A stretch of DNA of 32,000 bases from Acaryochloris marina MBIC11017 (lineage in GTDB: Bacteria; Cyanobacteriota; Cyanobacteriia; Thermosynechococcales; Thermosynechococcaceae), in NCBI RefSeq assembly GCF_000018105.1, contig NC_009931.1:32962-64961 (forward strand). The letters are read 5' to 3'. Within the stretch, counting starts at the first letter, position 1, and the number at the start of each line of letters is the position of its first letter. Positions 2,206 through 21,946 of this stretch are shown in pieces. A model generated the notes under the pieces. The model worked only from the letters and a program-made list of their open reading frames with translations. It searched no databases and had not been told where the DNA came from. Made by a program: the position numbers and the translations under genes.

Positions 2206-3099
2206 TTGCTCGAACGTAGCCACCTTGAGATCATCCGTGCGGTTGACCTGCATGGGACTATGACCGCCGCCGCGAATGCGCTACACCTAACGCAATCGGC
2301 GCTGAGCCACAGTATGCGCAAGCTGGAAGATCAGATTGGGGTGAAGCTTTGGTATCGGGAAGGACGCAGCCTTCGTCTCACCCAAGCTGGCACCCATTTG
2401 TTGGCCGTGGCCAACCGCCTGATTCCCCAGTTCGTCCACACAGAAGAACGATTAGAACAATTCGCCCGTGGTGAACGGGGAACATTACGAATTGGTATGG
2501 AGTGCCATCCTTGTTATCAGTGGCTCCAGAAAATCACTGGCCCTTACTTGCGTGCCTGGGAATCGGTGGATTTTGACATTAAACAAAAATTCCAATTCGG
2601 CGGCATCGGGGCTTTATTTGCTCACGAAATCGACCTGCTGGTAACTCCCGATCCACTTCTGAAGAAAAGGCTACATTTTGTGCCCGTTTTCGATTACGAA
2701 CAAGTCTTGGTGGTCGGATCTGAGCATCAACTTCGGGGGGAGGATTGGGTGATCCCTCAGCAACTTGGGGAAGAAGTTCTCTTTACATATCCGGTTTCAC
2801 AGGATCGCCTTGATATCTATACTCGCTTCCTCACTCCAGTGGGAATGACGGTCAGGCGGCAGAAAGTGGTTGAGACCACAGAAATAATGCTTCAAATGGT
2901 AGCCTGTGGCCGTGGTGTTGCTGCTTTGCCTCGCTGGTTGGTAGAAGAATTCTCTGAAAAATATACCGTGCATGCAGTGCGCTTGGGACCTGAAGGCGTG
3001 CAAAAACAAATTTTCCTGGGCGTCCGTCAAGCTGATCTCGAAGTTGACTATATCAATGCCTTTATCGATTTGGCCCGCAACTACCATGAACATCCTTGA
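2206..3099 (+). CDS. metR: LysR-family transcriptional regulator, MetR-like
   Basis: This is a 297-aa ORF with a TTG start per the track. The N-terminal LysR helix-turn-helix is LHGTMTAAANALHLTQSALSHSMRKLEDQIGVKLW. It resembles E. coli MetR (QTQSALSHQFSDLE), and the gene is divergent from metE, the classical metE-metR arrangement. Confidence 0.8.
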   Translation: MLERSHLEIIRAVDLHGTMTAAANALHLTQSALSHSMRKLEDQIGVKLWYREGRSLRLTQAGTHLLAVANRLIPQFVHTEERLEQFARGERGTLRIGMECHPCYQWLQKITGPYLRAWESVDFDIKQKFQFGGIGALFAHEIDLLVTPDPLLKKRLHFVPVFDYEQVLVVGSEHQLRGEDWVIPQQLGEEVLFTYPVSQDRLDIYTRFLTPVGMTVRRQKVVETTEIMLQMVACGRGVAALPRWLVEEFSEKYTVHAVRLGPEGVQKQIFLGVRQADLEVDYINAFIDLARNYHEHP

Positions 3100-3114
3100 A
3101 AAGGTTCATGGTAG
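3081..3114 (+). terminator. 11-bp perfect hairpin spanning the metR stop codon (possible terminator or stability element; no U-tract)
   Basis: CTACCATGAAC (3081-3091) pairs with GTTCATGGTAG (3104-3114). The 12-nt loop contains the TGA stop (3097-3099). It is followed by an A-rich rather than a T-rich sequence, so an intrinsic terminator is uncertain. Confidence 0.35.
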
Positions 3115-3274
3115 TTGACGGTGCAAAAAAATTAGACTATCTAAACATAAAATTACGCTGTCTGTGGCACCTTCTTCTTTATGGGTTCGCTAGATGCGGT
3201 GATGATAGACGAGTTAGCGCCTGAATGAGCCGAGGCTCGAAACCATATGAATGTCTCTGAGCTATGTTATAGTG

Positions 3275-3436
3275 TCGAGCAAATCGGTTCTGATGGGAAA
3301 CAGCCATCAGACGTAAGGGGGAAAGTCCGGTGTGAATCCGGCGCTGTCCCGCAGCTGTAAGGAGAGACGCAACTCTCTAAGCCAGAATGCCCACCGGTTG
3401 AAAACCCGTTACATAACTATCTGCGAGGTACAGGTA
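3275..3436 (+). promoter_or_regulatory. Cobalamin (B12) riboswitch
   Basis: The conserved aptamer core is GGGGGAAAGTCCGGTGTGAATCCGGCGCTGTCCCGCAGCTGTAAGG (3317-3362). It fits the consensus GGGAA..GGTG.AA.CC....C.G.CCCGC..CTGTAA. A B12-box-like AAGCCAGAATGCCCACC lies at 3379-3395. Flanking helices are TCTGATGG/CCATCAGA (3289-3311) and GGAGAG/CTCTCT (3361-3378). A GAGG Shine-Dalgarno at 3425-3428 and an ATG at 3437 follow. The ends are approximate. Confidence 0.85.
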
Positions 3437-3500
3437 ATGTCTGATAGCTTTTTTCGATTTCAACTGGGAAACCAAGCGTCTGGCTGTAGCCACGAACAGG

Positions 3501-3905
3501 TTGTGGAGATATAACCTACTTGCCATTGGTAGCGCCAGTAACTTCATCTATCCTCATGTCCCTTTAGTTAGCTTGGCATCGCTGGCGGGAGTCACTCTTA
3601 ATCGCAGACAAGCCATTGTCTCTGCTGGGTTGATTTGGTTGGTTAATCAATTCTTTGGTTTTACCGTTCTGCAATATCCTCTCAGTGCGATCTCACTCCT
3701 GTGGGGCCTGTCTATGGGACTGGGGACCATTGCAGTTGCCTTGGTTGCCTCAATTCGGCCCCCCTTTAGTCGTCGCAGTTGGTGGGCACAAAGTTTATGG
3801 CTAGGCATTTCATTGTTGCTTGGTTTTTGTCTCTATCAAAGCGGTACGCTGCTGGTCAATCAATGGGTGCAAATGCATGGTCTCACGGCTGATGTGTTTC
3901 TATAG
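3501..3905 (+). CDS. Small integral membrane protein (about 4 predicted TM helices) of unrecognised family; first gene downstream of the B12 riboswitch
   Basis: This is a 134-aa ORF (TTG start per the track) with hydrophobic stretches AIVSAGLIWLVNQFFGFTVL, AISLLWGLSMGLGTIAVALVASI and SLWLGISLLLGFCLYQSGTLLV. A better-placed ATG at 3437 with a GAGG SD is one frame off. It would join this frame if the T6 run at 3449-3454 were T5. Confidence 0.65.
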   Translation: MWRYNLLAIGSASNFIYPHVPLVSLASLAGVTLNRRQAIVSAGLIWLVNQFFGFTVLQYPLSAISLLWGLSMGLGTIAVALVASIRPPFSRRSWWAQSLWLGISLLLGFCLYQSGTLLVNQWVQMHGLTADVFL

Positions 3906-4004
3906 ATGCTAGGACGAGAGGTGCTGTGGGCAATCGCGCTGTTTGCGTTCTACACCGCTTTAGTTCTGAGCCATCAACGTAACCTGCAACAGACTCTGCG
4001 CTAA
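3906..4004 (+). CDS. Possible 32-aa single-TM micro-protein translationally abutting the membrane gene
   Basis: The ATG at 3906 directly follows the TAG stop at 3903-3905 (TAGATG). The translation is MLGREVLWAIALFAFYTALVLSHQRNLQQTLR, one hydrophobic helix and a basic tail. It is below the ORF-track cutoff and is speculative. Confidence 0.3.
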   Translation: MLGREVLWAIALFAFYTALVLSHQRNLQQTLR

Positions 4005-4326
4005 GTCTTTCTATTTGATTGAAGGCCAACTTCATCTTCAGCCCAGTGACATTGATGAAATTAAGCCGCTTGGAGGGCAATTTTGCCACACATCTGAGCA
4101 ACTTAGTTCCGCTGTACTCTGGTTGACTTAACTGCAAACGCTGGAAATTTCCGAAGTTCGGATCCATGACCCCATCCTCGTAATCAGCGACATAGAAGAT
4201 CCAAAAGATGGGATCACTGAAACCTGTCAAGCGCTTACTTCAGATGGGCCTTTCCAGACTAAGGCTGAAATCTACTCTAAATCTTTAGAGCAGCCTCTAA
4301 AAACTTCAATTAAGGACGCTAAAGCA

Positions 4327-7209
4327 ATGCCAGACACAAAAGAGTTAGAGTCTGCTCCCTTATCAATACTGCCTCCTATTCAGGGTGGGTCTGTGGAGGG
4401 GCTTGACGCCGAGTACAAAGTCATTCGCCGCAATGGCAGCGTTGTTGGGTTTGAGGCGGACAAAATCGCGATCGCAATGACCAAAGCGTTTCTTGCTGTC
4501 AAAGGTGTGCAGAGTGGAGTCTCTGCGCGAGTGCGTGAGCTGGTGGCAACGCTGACCACCAATGTTGTTACCGCCTTGAAGCGCCGTCAGCCCACTGGCG
4601 GCACCTTTCACATTGAAGATATTCAAGATCAGGTGGAGCTGGCTTTAATGCGCTCTGGCGAGCATGATGTCGCTCGCGCCTATGTGCTGTATCGCGAAAA
4701 GCGTTCTCAAAAACGTACCCAACAGCATGGCATAGAGGCAGCTCCAATTTACCTGATGGATGGCGGTGATCGCGTATTACTTGATTTGGAGCGCTTCAAC
4801 GATTTGGTTGATTCCGCTTGCATCAACCTCGGAGATACGGTGAGTGGCAAGGCGATCGCTGATGAAGCCCTCAAAAATATTTACGATGGAGCGTCGGTGG
4901 TAGAACTACATAAGTCAGCGATATTGGCGGCGAGATCGCACATTGAAAAAGATCCAGACTACAGCAAAGTCACGGCAAGACTTCTTCTGCACAGGATTCG
5001 CCAGGAGGTCTTGGGTGCAGAAGTAACTCAAGCAGAGATGCAAGCCCGCTACGCTGAATATTTTCCCCACTTTATTCAGCAAGGTATTGCAACCGGACTA
5101 CTAGACGAAAAGCTCGCTCAATTTAACTTGCAGAAATTAGGTTCGGTCCTTGTCGCTGAGCGTGATCTTCAGTTTGGCTATCTGGGGTTACAAACCCTCT
5201 ATGATCGCTATTTTCTGCATACAGAAGATCGACGGATTGAGCTACCCCAGGCATTTTTTATGCGTGTGGCCATGGGACTTGCCCTGAACGAAATCGATCG
5301 TGAAGAACGGGCAGCGGAGTTCTACGACATCTTATCGAAGTTTGATTTCATGAGTTCGACCCCCACGCTGTTCAACTCGGGGACGGTGCGATCTCAGCTT
5401 TCTTCTTGTTATTTGACGACGGTACCGGATGCCCTCGACGGCATTTATAGCGCAATAAAAGACAACGCGCTGCTCTCCAAATATGCCGGGGGGCTGGGGA
5501 ATGACTGGACACCAGTACGGGCGCTAGGTGCTCATATTAAAGGCACCAACGGTAAATCTCAAGGCGTAGTACCGTTTCTCAAGGTCGTTAACGATACGGC
5601 AGTTGCTGTGAATCAAGGAGGCAAAAGAAAGGGAGCCGTATGCGCTTATTTAGAAACCTGGCATTTGGATATCGAAGAGTTTTTAGAACTCCGCAAAAAT
5701 ACCGGAGACGATCGCCGCCGCACCCACGACATAAACACCGCCAACTGGATTCCCGACCTATTTATGAAGCGGGTGATGGAAGATGGCGACTGGACGCTGT
5801 TTTCGCCGGATATAGTACCGGATCTCCATGACAAAGTGGGCAAAGAATTTGAAACTGCTTACCTGGCCTACGAGCAGCAGGCTGCAAAGGGCGAACTGAA
5901 GCCTTTCAAGACCGTGCCCGCCAATACCCTCTGGCGCAAGATGCTGTCGATGCTGTTTGAAACTGGCCACCCCTGGATTACGTTTAAAGACCCCTGTAAT
6001 GTGAGGTCGCCTCAGCAGCATATTGGCATGGTGCATAGCTCAAACCTTTGCACCGAAGTTACGCTCAACACGAATGAAAATGAAATAGCCGTGTGCAATC
6101 TTGGCTCAGTCAATCTTGTTAATCACATGGTGGAGAAAAACGGTCAAATGCAGCTCGATCAAGCCAAGCTGCAACACACCATCACCATTGCCATGCGGAT
6201 GCTGGATAATGTGATCGACCTGAACTACTATGCCGTCAGCACAGCGCGGAATTCTAACCTCAAGCATCGCCCCGTGGGTTTGGGGATTATGGGCTTCCAA
6301 GACTGTCTGCACCAACTGCGCCTGCCCTACGCCTCTCAAGATGCGGTTGACTTTGCAGATCGCGCTATGGAAGCCGTCTGCTACTACGCCTACTGGGCTT
6401 CGACCGAACTGGCCCAAGAACGCGGTCGGTACTCCACCTACAAAGGGTCACTGTGGGATCGCGGTATTTTACCCCAAGATACCCTGGCACTTCTCAAAGA
6501 AGTACGCGGTGGATTTGTGGAGGTGGATGAGTCTTCTACGATGGATTGGGATCTGCTGCGAGACCGGATTGCCCAGCATGGAATGCGAAACTCGAACTGC
6601 GTTGCGATCGCCCCCACCGCAACCATTGCCAACATCATTGGTGTCTCTGCTTGCATCGAGCCAACCTACCAAAATCTGTACGTCAAATCAAATCTGTCAG
6701 GGGAGTTTACCGTCGTCAACGAGTATTTGGTGCGCGACCTCAAAGTCCGTGAACTTTGGGATGAAGTTATGATTGCCGACCTTAAATATTTCGACGGCAG
6801 TTTGGCAAAAATCGATCGGATTCCGCCAGAGCTACGCCAGCTTTACGCTACCGCCTTCGAGGTTGAACCCAATTGGATTGTGGAAGCTGCGGCCCGTCGC
6901 AGTAAGTGGATCGATCAGGCTCAATCGCTCAATATCTACATGGCCGGAGCATCGGGCAAAAAGCTCGATCAGATCTACAAGCTGGCGTGGCAGCGTGGCT
7001 TAAAAACCACCTACTATCTTCGCTCCCTCGGTGCCACCCATGTTGAAAAATCGACGGCTCCAGCCAGTAGCCTCAACGCGGTATCCAATAACGGCAGCAG
7101 CAATGGTATAGGCAATATACTCACTACCTCAAAATCTGAAAACTTGGGTCAGGTTTGTAGCTTATCCCCTGGCGATGCCAACTTTGATGACTGCGAAGCC
7201 TGCCAGTAA
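4327..7209 (+). CDS. nrdA: Ribonucleoside-diphosphate reductase alpha subunit, class Ia (long form with an N-terminal ATP-cone and a second degenerate cone)
   Basis: This is a 960-aa ORF with AAGGA 10 nt upstream of the ATG. The ATP-cone is [22 protein letters not shown]. Catalytic motifs include SSCYL, NLCTEV and PTATIANI. The C-terminal redox tail ends with the Cys pair in DDCEACQ. The overall length and architecture resemble Pseudomonas-type NrdA. Confidence 0.95.
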
Positions 7210-7250
7210 GCAACTGGTCAGTAAATTTGTTAACCCCTAAGGAGACTCTA

Positions 7251-8405
7251 ATGATGTTGGTGTGGGAAGAAGAGACGACCGCTACAGCACAGACCAAAAC
7301 TGTTCAGACCGAACCCGTTCAGGCGGTTCCATCACCGCAAGAAGCTGGCCCTCAAACAATAATGGCTCAACCGGAAACGCAACCCCCTCGTCGCATCAAC
7401 GTTGCTGACAAGCGCATCATTAACGGCCAAACCGATGTCAATCAGCTTGTGCCCTTTAAGTACCAGTGGGCCTGGGACAAATATCTGGCAGGCTGTGCTA
7501 ACCACTGGATGCCCCAAGAGATCAATATGAGCAGGGATATTGCACTGTGGAAAACCACTGACGGGTTAACCGAAGATGAGCGTCGCATCGTCAAGCGGAA
7601 TCTCGGCTTTTTTGTCACCGCAGATTCTTTAGCCGCTAACAATATTGTTCTGGGCACCTATCGACATATCACGGCACCAGAATGCCGCCAATATTTACTA
7701 CGTCAAGCCTTTGAAGAAGCCATCCATACCCATGCCTATCAATATATTGTCGAATCCTTGGGGCTAGATGAGGGCGAAATCTTTAATGCTTACCGAGAAG
7801 TGGACTGCATTCGCGAGAAAGATGAGTTTTTAATTCCCTTTGTCGAGACTTTGACCGATCCTACCTTTGAAACCGGCACCCCCGAAAACGATCAAAAACT
7901 GCTTAAGTCTCTAATTGCTTTCTCTTGTCTTATGGAAGGTCTTTTTTTCTATGTAGGCTTTGTCCAAATCTTGGCCTTGGGTCGCCAAAACAAAATGACG
8001 GGCGCAGCCGAGCAGTATCAATACATCCTGCGGGATGAGTCGATGCACTGCAATTTTGGTATCGATCTAGTCAATGCCATTAAGCAAGAAAACCCGCATC
8101 TGTGGACCCCTGAATTTTGCGAAGAGATCCGCGATCTGTTTAAGCGGGCGGTAGAGCTTGAATATCGCTACGCCGAAGACACCATGCCCCGTGGCGTGCT
8201 CGGGCTTAATGCCTCTATGTTTAAGAGCTACTTGCGCTACATTGCCAATCGGCGTTCTCAGCAGATTGGCCTCGACCCCATTTTTGCTTCTGAAGAAAAT
8301 CCCTTCCCTTGGATGAGTGAGATGGTAGACCTCAAAAAGGAACGCAACTTCTTTGAAACCCGTGTGTTGGAATATCAGACCGGTGGGGCACTCAGTTGGG
8401 ATTAA
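7251..8405 (+). CDS. nrdB: Ribonucleoside-diphosphate reductase beta subunit, class Ia (di-iron tyrosyl radical type)
   Basis: The ATG at 7251 lies 6 nt after AAGGAG (7239-7244); the track start 7227 is TTG. Metal and radical motifs are FFVTADSL (Asp ligand), [12 protein letters not shown] (E-x-x-H then Tyr at +4), LMEGLFFY and [10 protein letters not shown]. The C-terminal end is [10 protein letters not shown]. Confidence 0.93.
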
Positions 8406-8530: not shown

Positions 8531-9001
8531 GTGACCGATCATCCTCAACCGGACTGGCAACAAGCTTTTATCACGACTAACCTGCTGGTCCTAGGCTACA
8601 ACGCCTGGTGTGGATTTCTGACAGGGGCGCGGGGTGCAGTGGTGTGTAGCCTTAACTCACCGCAGTTGGGGATGACCGGGGAAAGCTTTCCGGCACACTA
8701 CATTTCGCGCGCTCGTCTCGCCCCATTCCTCAACGCTTGGTTAGCTATTCCCGATACGGTTATTTTGACTCATCACCACATCACTAGCCACATTCTCGAT
8801 GTGGTTGATGGCTATAATCCCGAAACCGACATAATTTTGCTGTTGGAATCGGGCGATCTCGCCTCTTTTTTTTACCTGCGAAATTTGCCCATCTCTCCCC
8901 CTCAAAGTTATGAGGTGGTTTGTAAAGGATGGGATGAATTTAAACCCATTGAGCCCGATTATCCCAAAACTCAACTATTTCAAAATAATCTCAAGTCTTA
9001 A
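8531..9001 (+). CDS. Hypothetical protein (156 aa), no recognisable domain
   Basis: The ORF has a GTG start that overlaps (GTGA) the stop of a 28-codon ORF at 8448-8534. It lies on the same strand, tightly packed between nrdB and the DUF1636-like gene (16-nt gap to 9017). I recognise no motifs. Confidence 0.55.
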   Translation: MTDHPQPDWQQAFITTNLLVLGYNAWCGFLTGARGAVVCSLNSPQLGMTGESFPAHYISRARLAPFLNAWLAIPDTVILTHHHITSHILDVVDGYNPETDIILLLESGDLASFFYLRNLPISPPQSYEVVCKGWDEFKPIEPDYPKTQLFQNNLKS

Positions 9002-9016
9002 CCCTACCTGCAATCC

Positions 9017-9409
9017 ATGACACAAACCACCTTATTTGTCTGCTCCCTCTGTCGATTTTCCAAGGATGAAGCTAGCCGGGATGGCATTTCCGGGGGGCAA
9101 CACCTGATCAACCAGTTGCATCAGTTCCTCACCGATAGCGGACTACAAGATGTCGTGCGGTTAGAGCCGTTGCGCTGTATGGCGGGATGCAGCCACCCTT
9201 GCAACGTCAGTCTGGCCGCACCCGGTAAATTGACCTTTGTCCTCAGCCAGATATCACCGACAGAGGGAGCTAAGGCGGTTTCAGCATTTTGCCAGCAATA
9301 CGCCACTTCTCCCGATGGTAAAGTCCCCTACTCGGAACGTCCGAACTCGGTTCGAGAGGCCACTGCGTTTGTCCTACCGCCACTCCCTACTGATGCCCCC
9401 ACCCGCTAA
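9017..9409 (+). CDS. DUF1636-like predicted metal-binding (thioredoxin-like ferredoxin fold) protein
   Basis: This is a 130-aa ORF with the Cys pattern CSLC ... CMAGCSHPC. It sits immediately upstream of a CobW-like gene, the usual context of DUF1636. The assignment is from memory of the family. Confidence 0.7.
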   Translation: MTQTTLFVCSLCRFSKDEASRDGISGGQHLINQLHQFLTDSGLQDVVRLEPLRCMAGCSHPCNVSLAAPGKLTFVLSQISPTEGAKAVSAFCQQYATSPDGKVPYSERPNSVREATAFVLPPLPTDAPTR

Positions 9410-9467
9410 TGATTCAGCTTCTATTGAATTCAGTAAAGTTTGTCTTTTCTTCAAAGGAGTTCCTTTT

Positions 9468-10514
9468 ATGCACAAAATTCCCGTTACTGTGGTCACTGGC
9501 TTTCTCGGTTCAGGCAAAACCACTCTGGTGCGGCATCTACTGCAAAATAACCAGGGTCGTCGAATTGCAGTGTTAGTAAATGAGTTTGGCGAAGTGGGCA
9601 TTGACGGCGAACTGCTGAGGTCATGCCAGGTGTGCAACGACGAGGAGACTCCTAACGGCTCTGGCCCCAATATTGTTGAACTGGCCAATGGCTGCCTCTG
9701 CTGCACAGTGCAGGAAGAGTTTTTTCCCACCATGCAGGAGCTATTGAAGCGACGCGATGAAATTGACTGCATTGTGATTGAAACCTCAGGGTTAGCCCTG
9801 CCCAAGCCTCTAGTGCAAGCGTTTCACTGGCCTGAAATCCGCACGGGAGCTACGGTAGATGGGGTGGTGACGGTGGTGGATGGCGATGCTCTGGCTCAGG
9901 GGTGTATCGTCAACAATCTGGACGCCTTGCACACCCAGCGACAGGCAGATGACAGTTTAGAACATGAAACCCCAATAGAGGAACTGTTTGAAGATCAATT
10001 AGCCTGTGCGGATATGGTACTACTGGCCAAAACCGATGTGATACAGGAGGAGGATACATGTAGCCGCATCCAACAGTGGCTGCAGCAACAGACTTCGACA
10101 GGTGTCAAAGTTGTTCCCTGCCACCACGGTCAAATTAGCCCAGATATTCTGCTCGGTTTTAACGCGGCTGTTGAAGACAATCTCGATAGCCGCCCCAGCC
10201 ATCATGATCAGGAAGAAGAGCATGATCACGATGACAACATCAACTCCATCTGCATAGAGCTGGAGCAGACCTTTGACCCAAACACACTGATCGAACGGTT
10301 GCAAGTCTTGGTACAGCAGCAAGAAATTTATCGGATCAAGGGCTTCGTCGCCGTTCCCAATAAAGCCATGCGGTTGGTGCTCCATGGAGTGGGGCAACGC
10401 TTTGACCAATTTTATGATCGGCTATGGCAAACTAGCGAACCCCGTCTGACTCAACTAGTGTTTATCGGCCAAGGACTGGACTCCCATCATATTACTGAAG
10501 CGATTTCTGCTTAA
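9468..10514 (+). CDS. CobW/COG0523 (G3E family) metallochaperone GTPase with a His/Asp/Glu-rich insert
   Basis: The ATG at 9468 lies 8 nt after AAGGAG (9454-9459). The track start 9237 overlaps the upstream gene and is rejected. Motifs are Walker A VVTGFLGSGKTTLV, the COG0523 metal motif GCLCCT and ETSGLA. The acidic-His stretch is SRPSHHDQEEEHDHDDN, and the CobW C-terminal domain is IYRIKGFV. Confidence 0.88.
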   Translation: MHKIPVTVVTGFLGSGKTTLVRHLLQNNQGRRIAVLVNEFGEVGIDGELLRSCQVCNDEETPNGSGPNIVELANGCLCCTVQEEFFPTMQELLKRRDEIDCIVIETSGLALPKPLVQAFHWPEIRTGATVDGVVTVVDGDALAQGCIVNNLDALHTQRQADDSLEHETPIEELFEDQLACADMVLLAKTDVIQEEDTCSRIQQWLQQQTSTGVKVVPCHHGQISPDILLGFNAAVEDNLDSRPSHHDQEEEHDHDDNINSICIELEQTFDPNTLIERLQVLVQQQEIYRIKGFVAVPNKAMRLVLHGVGQRFDQFYDRLWQTSEPRLTQLVFIGQGLDSHHITEAISA

Positions 10515-19492: not shown

Positions 19493-21946
19493 GTTAACCT
19501 AAGCCGGAGGATCACTCCTCCGACTTGGCTTCAAAACCGTGCGTAAATCTTTCGATTTACACGGCTCCTCAGTGGCTTGGTGCTTGTCATACATACCATT
19601 TGGCCTGAGAGGACTTCTCCTTGGCCGTTTTAACATAATGACAATGTCTGTGTAGTAGTTGAAGATTCTTGTATACGTCCAATCCTCCCATTGATGTAGG
19701 GAGAATGTGATCCACTTCAAGTAAATCTTCTTCTCGGAAGAACATGCCGCACTGAGCGCATTTCCCCTTCTGCTTCTTCAAGAGCATAGATACTCTCTTC
19801 GGAGCTTCTGGATGCTTCCCAGTCCTTGAACTCCAGTAAACTAGATTGCCATTGTAGGGACTTGCATCCCCCTTGACTTTGACATGGCGGATAATTGGAG
19901 TCTGTCGATGTTTGAGTAATTTTTCGGTTCTAGATTTAGTTACTCTAGTCGCGAAGACCCATTTATCTCCCCCGACAGTTTGCCAATATTTATTCACCAC
20001 CCATTTCCTGGATTTGCCAGGATGGCGGTGGTTAGCCCATGTTTGAAGCTTTTGATACAGTAAATGGTCTAGACGGGAGAAGGTCTCTTTACTAGCCATG
20101 GTCGAATAATATCTCGTCCATCCTCTAATCACGGGATTGAGGTGGCGGATTAATGCCGCTTGCGGCGCTGCCTTATGGGCGTTGATGATACTAACGAGCC
20201 GATTGTAATGTACTTTTTGCTTCTTTCGACTGGGGGTAATGATGGTCTTAAATCCCAGCAATGTCCCGCATAATCTCCCCGATTGATGTTGACCGACCGG
20301 GAATTGTCTAACTGAGAATCCTAGAAAATCAAATCCAGGGTTTTCAGCTTCATACCTTTTGAGAGTATGGGATATATGCGTTTTGCTAGGTTTTAGTTCC
20401 AACCCCATGTCTTTTAGCCACTCATGAACTAAGCTCTGACATCTTTGAACTACGGATAAATCCTCGTGAAGAATCACGAAGTCATCACAGTATCGAATGA
20501 CATCAGGAGTAGCAATTCTTTTTCGCTTATTCCCGTCGGCAATCTTTCTGATAGGAAAGGCTTGCTTGATTCGATACTCTAGGCCATGGAGGGCTACATT
20601 TGCCAACAAAGGAGAGATAGTCCCCCCTTGAGGTGCTCCTTCAGATGTCTGTAAGAACTGATGACCATCAATTACCCCAGCTTTTAGCCAAGTTTTTATT
20701 TGTCGGCGTAGAGTGGGAAAGGTCTTCAGCTTTTTGAGCAGTGCTTCGTGGTTTATTCGGTCAAAACATTGGGCTATATCAGCGTCCAACACATATTTTG
20801 CTTTCTGTTTAATGGCTGCAAAAATTTGTTCTATCGCGTCATGACATGAACGGCCTGGTCTTGAACCATAGGAGTTTGGTTCGAAAACCGCTTCCCATTC
20901 AGGTTCCAGGGCTAGTTTGACTAGTGTCATTCTTGCCCTTTCATACAGGGTCGGTATACCCAAAGGACGTTGTTCGTCTTTTCCTGGTTTAGGAATCCAC
21001 ACCCGTCTGGTGGGAGGGGCCTTTGAGCCGAGTTTAAGTTGACCCACTAGGGGCAGACGAGCTTCTGGGGACAGAGATTTAACTCCATCCACACCTGCCG
21101 TCTTTTTTCCCTGGTTGTCTTGTGTGACCCGTCTAACTGAAAGGCATTTGGCTGACCAGGACCTCATCAGAGTTTTCTGGAGTCTATGTACTACTTTGAC
21201 ATCGCCACGTTGTCTGGCTCTGAATATGCGCTTTTGCAACTTAAACACTTTCCGCTCTAGTTTTGGCCAGGGGATTGCGCTCCATTCCATCATCGGTTTG
21301 ACCCGTGCTTTAGACATATTTATTGCTACTTGTTCCTATTCATTCCAAGTCACCGTGAGTCTGTCTGCTTATCCTCACCATTACAGTGGGGCTTTTGCTT
21401 TTGACCCAATCCTTCCCACCGCCTAACTTCTGGTTAGCACCTACTCTTAGCCAATCGACCTCCAAGAGAGATAGGCGGGGGTTACTTCGTTCCTAATAGC
21501 CATTGATTGAACTGTTAGAGTGATGCGCTCCACCGGGTTTATTGGAAGTGCTAACTGGTCGCTACTGGACACGCCAGCTCCGTATATCCTTGCCCTTTTG
21601 GGACTCCCAGCGTTATCAACCTAATTTCGCTGGTTAATGATTACGGTGGGTTAACCACATCTTCGCTTTCGCTACTCATAAGTTCTTGCTCGAAGGGGTT
21701 CAGAGCTAGGCTCCCTGTTACCTCCTTTTTTCCCCGCTTCAGGCGTTGATGGCTAGTCGCGAACCTGGGGGAAATGCTGTCACCGCTGCACCTGCGGGAT
21801 AGGACTAGAGCGGTCTAGGATACTGACTCTCACCTATATGGCTATTAAGTTGTCAAGGTACAGTTGGGATATTTTCCCCTTCTTTACGCTTGCGGCTAAT
21901 CCCCTCAAACCCTATTCAGGTCTAGTTTCTAGCCAACGAATCGCAC
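19493..21946 (-). mobile_element. Group II intron (2,454 nt, ORF in domain IV) interrupting tnpA in the sense orientation
   Basis: The 5' end is GTGCGATTCG (complement of 21946 downward), directly after the TGG codon. Domain V is GAGCCGTGTAAATCGAAAGATTTACGCACGGTTT (19534-19567). Domain VI is CCAAGTCGGAGGA-GTGA-TCCTCCGGCTTAGG with a bulged branch A at 19500, 7 nt before the 3' end ...GGTTAAC (19493). The EBS1 candidate CCAGTAG (complement of 21562-21568) pairs with the last 7 exon nt, CTACTGG. Confidence 0.88.
19587..21317 (-). CDS. Group II intron-encoded reverse transcriptase/maturase with a C-terminal HNH endonuclease domain
   Basis: This is a 576-aa ORF. RT motifs are RVWIPKPGKDEQRPLGIPTLYERARM, GAPQGGTISPLLANVAL and YCDDFVILH (YxDD). 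The maturase/X region is RGWTRYY. The HNH domain is CAQCG...EVDHILPTSMGG...LQLLHRHCH. Confidence 0.93.
   Translation of the reverse strand: MSKARVKPMMEWSAIPWPKLERKVFKLQKRIFRARQRGDVKVVHRLQKTLMRSWSAKCLSVRRVTQDNQGKKTAGVDGVKSLSPEARLPLVGQLKLGSKAPPTRRVWIPKPGKDEQRPLGIPTLYERARMTLVKLALEPEWEAVFEPNSYGSRPGRSCHDAIEQIFAAIKQKAKYVLDADIAQCFDRINHEALLKKLKTFPTLRRQIKTWLKAGVIDGHQFLQTSEGAPQGGTISPLLANVALHGLEYRIKQAFPIRKIADGNKRKRIATPDVIRYCDDFVILHEDLSVVQRCQSLVHEWLKDMGLELKPSKTHISHTLKRYEAENPGFDFLGFSVRQFPVGQHQSGRLCGTLLGFKTIITPSRKKQKVHYNRLVSIINAHKAAPQAALIRHLNPVIRGWTRYYSTMASKETFSRLDHLLYQKLQTWANHRHPGKSRKWVVNKYWQTVGGDKWVFATRVTKSRTEKLLKHRQTPIIRHVKVKGDASPYNGNLVYWSSRTGKHPEAPKRVSMLLKKQKGKCAQCGMFFREEDLLEVDHILPTSMGGLDVYKNLQLLHRHCHYVKTAKEKSSQAKWYV

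Follow-up and report, generated by a model that had tools for sequence, protein, structure and literature searches.

What does a cobalamin (vitamin B12) riboswitch govern when the gene directly behind it belongs to no described family and seems to be broken in two? The question is raised by a 32,000-nucleotide stretch of Acaryochloris marina MBIC11017 (NC_009931.1, positions 32,962 to 64,961 of the forward strand), called the window below, in which a B12 aptamer is followed by an open reading frame (ORF) for a small hydrophobic protein and, abutting it, by a 32-codon ORF for a single transmembrane (TM) helix. A first-pass annotation had read this as a candidate corrinoid/cobalt membrane module of two proteins. 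We find that the two ORFs are pieces of one gene, and that its family, so far without a name, recurs with B12 riboswitches in other genomes. The explanation that we favour, with moderate confidence, is that the family consists of solitary, BtuM-like inner-membrane corrinoid importers under riboswitch OFF control, and that the copy in the window is probably defective. For many bacteria that import B12 the inner-membrane transporter is unknown (PMC6072759).

A cobalamin riboswitch upstream of the membrane gene

Scanned with cmscan, the window as a whole yields the cobalamin riboswitch RF00174 on the + strand, at 3268-3412. The match scores 57.4 bits, where the gathering threshold is 31.5 (E 6.5e-12), and it spans the full model, positions 1-189. 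The aptamer proposed in the first-pass annotation is real: the core and the B12 box quoted for it both lie within this match. The aptamer is identical in pREC2, a plasmid of A. marina MBIC10699. In the minimum-free-energy fold of 3268-3470 it is followed by an expression-platform hairpin (3418-3436, +) with a 6-bp stem (UAUCUG/CAGGUA) and a 7-nt loop (CGAGGUA); the loop carries the Shine-Dalgarno (SD) sequence GAGG (3425-3428), 13 nt past the aptamer, and an ATG stands directly 3′ of the hairpin. The motif TCTGCGAGGTACAG recurs without change in 9 genome loci and about 20 metagenome loci. This layout looks like the usual arrangement of a translational OFF switch, in which binding of a corrinoid would sequester the SD through a kissing loop. 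A promoter and terminator scan of 3000-4400 on the + strand gave nothing useful. An 83-nt stretch of the aptamer (3278-3360) is also 91.6% identical to unannotated DNA on the Trichormus variabilis plasmids NC_007410.1 and NZ_CP047243.1.

Two reading frames, one membrane protein

Behind the hairpin, the ORF list of the window shows a 134-aa ORF with a TTG start (3501-3905, +) and the 32-codon ORF (3906-4004, +), the TAG of the first (3903-3905) standing directly before the ATG of the second (3906-3908), just as first described. A search of 5.8 billion proteins yielded 49 relatives, nearly all of 160-200 aa, from Acaryochloris, Coleofasciculus, Okeania, Dapis, Thermosynechococcaceae and metagenomes, and a scan of cyanobacterial genomes, one per species, yielded 53 loci. 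In all 49 database homologs and all 53 loci the two parts form one continuous protein, which rules out the micro-ORF as a separate gene; the homolog of A. marina P0001, for example, reads across the junction as ADVFLQMLGREVLW. From the homologs and an analysis of the frames, 3438-3902 (+) holds the N-terminal 155 codons of the open family frame, with helices 1-5, and the homolog alignments place the sixth, C-terminal TM helix at 3906-4004 (+), closed by its natural TAA stop (4002-4004). The latter segment corresponds to the helix at residues 130-162 of an AlphaFold2 (AF2) model of a homolog. Between them lies the in-frame amber codon TAG (3903-3905, +), which is CAG (Gln) in pREC2 and Arg in most homologs. 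Over 10 kb the DNA of the window and of pREC2 is 98.8% identical. On this comparison, helix 6 was detached by one C-to-T nonsense change that is confined to strain MBIC11017.

Several structural details of the first description change with this result. It had counted about four helices; the AlphaFold models of two homologs show six, five in the 134-aa piece and the sixth in the 32-aa piece. It had cast the micro-protein as a CbtB-like small partner, and the peptide is instead the family's own C-terminal helix, fused in all homologs. The 155-aa form that it had suggested by extension to an upstream ATG does not exist, for the ATG at 3437-3439 lies in a different frame, which stops at 3512-3514, and the frame of the 134-aa ORF is closed upstream by a TAA at 3435-3437.

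A functional split was considered, in which translation would terminate at the TAG and re-initiate at the ATG to give a five-helix protein and a one-helix peptide that assemble in the membrane. The juxtaposed TAGATG could permit translational coupling, the start codon of the micro-ORF encodes Met136, which is conserved in the family, and split helical membrane proteins can sometimes reassemble. Against this, none of the 49 homologs or 53 genome loci is split at the junction, the nearly identical MBIC10699 sequence has CAG there, the same allele carries R57L at a conserved position, and no SD precedes the ATG at 3906. We hold such a split to be very improbable.

An unclassified family of six-helix proteins

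The protein had been called unclassified, and so it remained: none of 26 close members matched a Pfam family at E ≤ 1, nor did any of 10 distant members at E ≤ 0.1, and no NCBIfam model matched family members, close or distant. Two profiles (A2 and A3) compared with all PDB sequences, including 6FFV and 8OVV, found nothing at E ≤ 10, BtuM included, and single-sequence searches found nothing either. The remark that the protein is unlike the known riboswitch-linked transporters was borne out as well, since it is none of BtuB, BtuCDF, BtuM (by sequence), CbiMNQO, CbtAB, HupE/UreJ or NiCoT, and no description of the family was found in the literature on the family itself, DUF7676, DUF1636, the Anabaena Zur operons and riboswitch-based transporter surveys. 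A profile search of 1.84 billion representatives returned 573 clusters (50% identity) at E ≤ 1e-3 and 241 at E ≤ 1e-10. Members are mostly 170-200 aa long (about 166-200 aa overall) with six helices, and beyond the main cyanobacterial group they occur in Gloeobacter, Alphaproteobacteria, Rokubacteria and Gemmatales.

AF2 models of a cyanobacterial member (pLDDT 87.5, pTM 0.81) and of a proteobacterial member (pLDDT 91.9, pTM 0.86) both have six helices, the first of them kinked. When these models were compared with the PDB by Foldseek, the best TM-score for the cyanobacterial model was to the energy-coupling factor (ECF) S-component FolT (4huq_S; 0.57/0.58, rmsd 4.7 Å over 175 columns, E 5.2), and the top-ranked match of the proteobacterial model was BtuM with hydroxycobalamin (8ovv; E 1.3, TM-score 0.34-0.36). 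These likenesses to S-component and BtuM folds are suggestive only. Across the broad family P21, W46, Q50, G53, Y59, P60 and W68 are invariant and N49 is nearly so. The cyanobacterial motif YP-H-x-P becomes A-C-A-x-P in almost all other members, and this alternation of His (cyanobacteria) and Cys (most lineages) is located in the kink of helix 1. The alignments hold conserved Trp, Tyr, Asn, Gln and Arg and no conserved acidic residue, a set that would suit an organic ligand better than a bare cation.

The family gene is linked to the B12 regulon

The linkage that the first-pass annotation had proposed to look for in other genomes is present there. Of the 53 cyanobacterial loci, 35 have a same-strand RF00174 match. 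The match precedes the family gene in 28 of them, any ORFs in between being on the same strand, and about ten of these 28 have it directly before the gene, as does the window. Clustering of 54 sources (the 53 loci and the window), together with Pfam and NCBIfam, identified the recurrent neighbours as CbiM/N/Q/O, MetE, DUF1636, CobW, ZnuABC, an SLH-OprB porin, an S-adenosylmethionine (SAM) methyltransferase, DUF7676 and a protein that we call c1. The order riboswitch, (DUF1636), family gene, metE is found in loci L012, L026, L030 and L053, and metE is in the operon of the family gene also in L006. The cobalt importer genes cbiMNQO adjoin the family gene in L003, L028, L029, L032, L042 and L043; this ECF module is not near the gene in most loci, nor in the window. 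DUF1636 recurs in 17 loci, as a rule adjacent to the family gene. DUF7676 is encoded directly upstream of it in L011, L014, L016-L018, L022, L025, L027, L041-L043, L052, L060 and L095, in cyanobacteria, Gemmatales and one unassigned metagenome contig (L095). The C-terminal domain of the cyanobacterial DUF7676 proteins is a thioredoxin-like [2Fe-2S] ferredoxin, and DUF7676 looks like a conserved partner of the family protein.

Outside the main cyanobacterial group the gene keeps company with TonB-dependent receptors (TBDTs). In Gloeobacter the order is riboswitch, TBDT, family gene; in an alphaproteobacterial metagenome-assembled genome, riboswitch (111.6 bits), TBDT, family gene, CbiZ and TonB; in L063/L064, riboswitch (122-125 bits), TBDT, TonB and family gene; and in L095, riboswitch (132.7 bits), TBDT, DUF7676, family gene and TonB. 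A riboswitch-controlled TBDT is divergent from the family gene in L093, and in L094 TonB and the family gene adjoin cbiJ. All three TBDTs tested (L058, L059 and L063) match the vitamin-B12 receptor model TIGR01779 best, below its strict cutoff. Operons of riboswitch, TBDT and family gene are present in L058, L059, L063/L064 and L095, and none was seen in the window itself. Linkage to a riboswitch and a btuB-like receptor is the genomic signature by which BtuM was first predicted (PMC6072759). Of the corrinoid/cobalt membrane module proposed at the outset, then, the tie to the B12 regulon stood, through the 28 cyanobacterial loci and at least four riboswitch-receptor-gene lineages (Gloeobacter, the alphaproteobacterial genome and two unassigned metagenome contigs), and the pairing of two genes with a micro-protein did not.

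Some features of these neighbourhoods are recorded here in their own right. The SAM methyltransferase, which we take to resemble Sll0418/MPBQ methyltransferase, lies directly 3′ of the family gene in riboswitch operons of L002, L003, L005, L007-L009, L012, L023, L031, L032, L038 and others, and is sometimes joined by a UbiH-like FAD (flavin adenine dinucleotide) monooxygenase or a fatty-acid-desaturase-like protein. L003 has back-to-back cobalamin riboswitches, 4427-4571 (-) and 4676-4832 (+), that head divergent operons, one running into cbiMNQO and a second family paralog and the other into the family gene, the methyltransferase and c1. DUF7676 was at one stage a candidate homolog of the family and was rejected: the clustering link came only through one ORF of L036, and DUF7676 is soluble and unrelated. 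That ORF (L036 6908-7861, Lyngbya sp. CCY1209) encodes 317 aa in which a [2Fe-2S] ferredoxin-like segment runs into a family protein, and could be a partner and a transporter fused in nature, or else result from the calling of ORFs. Strong matches to IsrR, the antisense RNA of isiA (116-138 bits), lie less than 7 kb from the gene in L010 (239-425, -) and L045 (869-1046 and 2116-2293, +), probably as a coincidental iron-stress neighbourhood.

Possible metal import and a zinc link

The same neighbourhoods raise the question of whether the family carries metal instead. It could be a divalent-metal importer with His/Cys ligands, serving B12 synthesis with Co2+ where a riboswitch controls the gene and taking up Zn2+ where Zur does, that passes the metal to GTPase chaperones of the CobW type. 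CobW and DUF1636 are neighbours of the gene in the window and in many loci; one locus reads ZnuA, OprB porin, family gene, CobW, FolE, and riboswitch-less loci read ThrRS paralog, family gene, DUF1636, SufE, CobW, CobW, FolE with ZnuABC nearby. Neighbourhoods of the ThrRS paralog/CobW/FolE/ZnuABC type are typical of Zur regulons (PMC10957091, PMC2770081), and B12 riboswitches are known to control cobalt importers (PMC7689651). Directly upstream of the riboswitch-less operons of ThrRS paralog and family gene (L039, L040, L044, L045, L047, L048, L051 and L056) stands the 7-1-7 palindrome TGAGAATGATTATCA, which also occurs upstream of the riboswitch in L005, L007-L009 and L021; in L026 and L030 it separates the family gene from metE. 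It looks like a cyanobacterial Zur box, a tentative likeness that carries the less weight in favour of metal.

Other evidence points away from a metal substrate. The family has no conserved Asp or Glu and no NiCoT, HupE (HPxxGxDH), CbiM, ZIP or CbtA signature or Pfam match. The operon often holds a complete cbiMNQO cobalt importer, beside which a second one would be redundant, and outside the cyanobacteria the gene is accompanied by BtuB-like receptors, TonB and the corrinoid-specific CbiZ. Because of the sharing of operons with cbiMNQO, the CbiZ, BtuB-like and TonB partners, the aromatic and amide residues and the lack of any Co/Zn transporter signature, we rank metal import second to corrinoid import and consider it rather unlikely. 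The distribution of the palindrome and of the riboswitches suggests that the family gene may be under dual zinc and B12 control. A Zur-controlled corrinoid importer could make sense, as a matter of speculation, as a means of zinc sparing, with MetH replacing the zinc-costly MetE.

The window allele and its plasmid island

The copy in the window departs from its relatives in more than the amber codon. In a global alignment of the window with pREC2, the family gene shows no synonymous and four non-synonymous differences: F to L (giving rise to the TTG at 3501), R57L, Q to stop (the amber codon) and S to A. R57, numbered from the TTG at 3501, is Arg in 25 of 25 cyanobacterial homologs of alignment A2. 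The genes for the LysR regulator, nrdA, nrdB and c1 together, metE being left out, show 38 synonymous and 12 non-synonymous differences; with these as the comparison, the hypergeometric probability of four non-synonymous changes out of four is about 0.006. Between the window and pREC2 there are also two compensating 1-nt indels in T-runs. Because of the excess of non-synonymous change, the window copy is probably under relaxed constraint, a defective or decaying allele. It is a poor example of its family and unsuited as a reference, its micro-ORF being an artefact of mutation.

The genes around it have a theme of their own. Upstream lie metE (1-2045, -; cut by the window edge and annotated as metE in pREC2) and, divergent from it, the gene of a MetR-like LysR regulator (2206-3099, +) with Pfam HTH_1 and LysR_substrate domains, whose best NCBIfam match, to MetR at 207.7 bits, falls below the cutoff. 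The window metE has no riboswitch of its own. Downstream follow nrdA, for the alpha subunit of class I ribonucleotide reductase, a B12-independent isozyme (4327-7209, +; Pfam ATP-cone, Ribonuc_red_lgN and lgC; NF005544, 1748 bits), and nrdB, for its beta subunit (7227-8405, +; Pfam Ribonuc_red_sm; NF005550, 696.6 bits). Next come the gene of c1, recognized by clustering (8531-9001, +; 156 aa), that of a 130-aa DUF1636 protein (9017-9409, +; Pfam PF07845 on the cluster representative, annotated as DUF1636 in pREC2), and cobW, for a COG0523 metallochaperone GTPase (9468-10514, +; syntenic with cobW in pREC2 and inside the window ORF 9237-10514). The soluble c1 protein (about 153 aa) has no Pfam, NCBIfam or PDB relative, and it adjoins the family gene, within riboswitch operons, in 20 of the 54 clustered sources; in pREC2 its gene has an extra T in a T8 run (window 8866), which shifts the frame. 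Against the PDB, DUF1636 matches 9jn8_A at E 3.3e-11, and its match to the ferredoxin 5abr is non-significant (E 0.33). Together metE, the metR-like gene, the riboswitch, the membrane gene, nrdA, nrdB, c1, DUF1636 and cobW form a plasmid-borne B12-sparing island. Elsewhere in the window the only other Rfam match is a group II intron catalytic domain (RF00029, 19493-19569, -, 48.2 bits), beside which a 576-aa ORF (19587-21317, -) may be a candidate reverse transcriptase/maturase.

On the + strand there is no terminator-like site between 4004 and 4327, that is, between the family gene and nrdA. By this absence of a predicted terminator, and by analogy with the riboswitch-gene-metE operons, nrdAB are apparently co-expressed with the family gene. 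Neither this gene pair, a textbook example of a B12-independent isozyme under such control, nor the decay of the allele had been noted in the first-pass annotation. Adjacency to nrdAB occurs only in Acaryochloris among the 54 sources, and by the same analogy the unit of riboswitch, family gene and nrdAB would be the Acaryochloris version of the riboswitch-gene-metE design.

It could then be argued that in this strain the true target of the riboswitch is nrdAB, and that the membrane ORF is a decaying passenger pseudogene within a long leader. A B12 riboswitch ahead of B12-independent ribonucleotide reductase genes is a known and well-established arrangement (PMC7689651). The amber codon, R57L and the count of no synonymous against four non-synonymous changes all accord with such decay; pREC2 has no canonical in-frame start, and nrdAB lie downstream with no predicted terminator in between. 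Yet the SD and start behind the riboswitch serve the membrane gene directly, and not nrdA at a distance of 900 nt; many genomes with no nrdAB have kept the unit of riboswitch and gene, and among the 54 sources the adjacency to nrdAB is confined to Acaryochloris. A passenger pseudogene ahead of nrdAB is a possible account, and in our judgement a doubtful one; it concerns only the state of this allele and is compatible with corrinoid import as the role of the family.

An out-of-frame start codon

A further peculiarity lies at the very start of the gene. The ATG behind the hairpin opens a short ORF of 25 codons (3437-3514, +; TAA at 3512-3514), offset by one base from the frame of the family gene. 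This ATG overlaps the TAA at 3435-3437, the upstream limit of the open family frame. In other lineages an in-frame TTG start stands at the position of this ATG: they read ATTGTGTCT where the window has GTAATGTCT, and their sequence A TTG TGT CTA AAA GCT TTT TTC GGT gives MCLKAFFGF. In at least seven lineages, that of the window included, TAA or TAG stands in place of the ancestral TTG, leaving as the sole start an ATG or GTG that is out of frame by one base; besides the window these are L001, L003, L006, L054, L067, L074/L081/L091 and L077. The only canonical in-frame start in the window is the TTG at 3501-3503, which is TTT in pREC2, and neither L006 nor pREC2 has a canonical in-frame start before TM1.

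Among the genes with an out-of-frame start, the synonymous fraction over the TM1 region is 0.59 in the family frame and 0.08 and 0.13 in the other two, a clear sign in the alignments that this frame is under purifying selection. Upstream of 3501 the frame-specific signal is weak (0.26 against 0.10 and 0.17), and a codon-position test of the family frame there, with third positions making up 14 of 30 variable sites, is not significant. A candidate +1 slip site, TTTTTTCGA, lies at 3449-3457 (+) and reads UUU UUU CGA in the ATG frame and GCU UUU UUC GAU in the family frame. UUU UUU CGR is kept in six of the seven lineages with an out-of-frame start, and the predicted product of a +1 shift, MSxSFF|G/DFNW, matches the MCLKAFFGF.W and MGLNFFD of in-frame lineages. 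The T-run at this site is the ancestral coding sequence for A-F-F-G/D in the in-frame lineages, and support from rare codons is absent: in the genes of the window CGA and CGG each occur about 13 times per 1000 codons and each account for 18-19% of Arg codons. The classical frameshift model is weakened because the T-run is ancestral coding sequence, CGA and CGG are not rare and the upstream frame signal is weak.

A +1 shift at UUU UUU CGR is offered here as a hypothesis only; the riboswitch may instead control a leader ORF, with the family protein initiated further downstream or at a near-cognate codon. The most far-reaching proposal would unite a broad new class of inner-membrane corrinoid transporters, with a Cys/His axial ligand, dedicated [2Fe-2S] ferredoxin-like partners and cyanobacterial wiring to B12 (riboswitch) and zinc (Zur), with a conserved +1 frameshift in at least seven lineages right after the riboswitch-controlled AUG. 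Taken as a whole we think it unlikely. If true, the shift at UUU UUU CGR would be one of very few bacterial chromosomal +1 frameshifts beyond prfB.

A proposed role in corrinoid import

Taking the family as a whole, the idea of a new corrinoid/cobalt membrane module is supported in the form of a family that is unrelated by sequence to BtuM and most likely works like it. A corrinoid, B12 or pseudo-B12, would be bound at the periplasmic face as it is by BtuM or an ECF S-component, with the Cys (most lineages) or His (cyanobacteria) in the helix-1 kink perhaps serving as the axial cobalt ligand, and would then be handed to the cytoplasmic [2Fe-2S] ferredoxin-like partners DUF7676 and DUF1636. When B12 is scarce, the importer would be expressed together with B12-independent enzymes, nrdAB here and metE elsewhere. 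In MBIC11017 the amber codon that detaches helix 6, together with the substitution at a conserved Arg, would probably leave the copy defective.

Several observations weigh against this proposal. In at least eight cyanobacterial loci the gene has no riboswitch and lies in zinc-type clusters, which would fit a metal transporter more naturally, and Cys and His also serve as metal ligands. The contexts in Rokubacteria and Gemmatales, the latter with DUF7676 followed by the gene, show no B12 link. Foldseek gave neither model a significant match in the PDB (best E 1.1-1.3), and structural agreement with BtuM is low by TM-score. Most cyanobacteria make pseudo-B12 themselves, so that their need of an importer is less obvious. 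Corrinoid transport would be, for any member of the family, an assignment by comparison, and the co-expression of nrdAB has for its basis the two points given above.

Corrinoid import by cyanobacteria is poorly understood. If the proposal is true, the family would join BtuM and ECF-CbrT as a third type of small B12 permease. Genome-based prediction of B12 scavengers in microbial communities would then improve, and the apparent connection of zinc starvation with B12 use in cyanobacteria would become easier to approach.

Comparison with known systems

The likeness to CbtA/CbtB, a predicted cobalt transporter and its one-helix partner, is on the surface: a multi-helix protein, a one-helix peptide and a B12 riboswitch. 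There is no homology, and the window peptide is the protein's own last helix, which a nonsense mutation specific to this strain has detached. HupE/UreJ, NiCoT, CbiM and CbtA have no Pfam or NCBIfam match in the family, and the HPxxGxDH motif and the four NiCoT motifs (as given in PMC7689651) are absent from the alignments. With the control of B12-independent isozymes the locus shares a riboswitch upstream of nrdA and nrdB and, elsewhere, metE in the same operon; here, however, the SD and start serve the membrane gene, and control of nrdAB would need co-transcription or polarity.

The ECF S-components, such as FolT (4HUQ_S), CbrT for cobalamin and CbiM for Co2+, are likewise small six-helix bundles, FolT being the best geometric match, and in six loci the family gene shares its operon or neighbourhood with CbiQ (the T component) and CbiO (the ATPase). 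The family differs from them in having no Pfam match to S-components (ECF_trnsprt, BioY, CbiM and others) and in lacking the N-terminal metal-binding Met-His motif of CbiM.

The closest parallel is BtuM of Thiobacillus denitrificans (6FFV, 8OVV). No sequence similarity to it was detectable when the family profiles were run against PDB sequences at E ≤ 10. In BtuM the axial-ligand Cys80 in loop 3 is invariant (PMC6072759), whereas the family has no invariant Cys, its Cys/His position lies in the helix-1 kink, and the cyanobacterial members have His instead of Cys. The family is also often found beside cbiQO, [2Fe-2S] ferredoxin-like partners and Zur-type clusters. With BtuM it shares a size of about 20 kDa and six helices, a place behind a cobalamin riboswitch, in one operon with a BtuB-like TonB-dependent receptor, and, in most lineages, a conserved Cys that could ligate cobalt.

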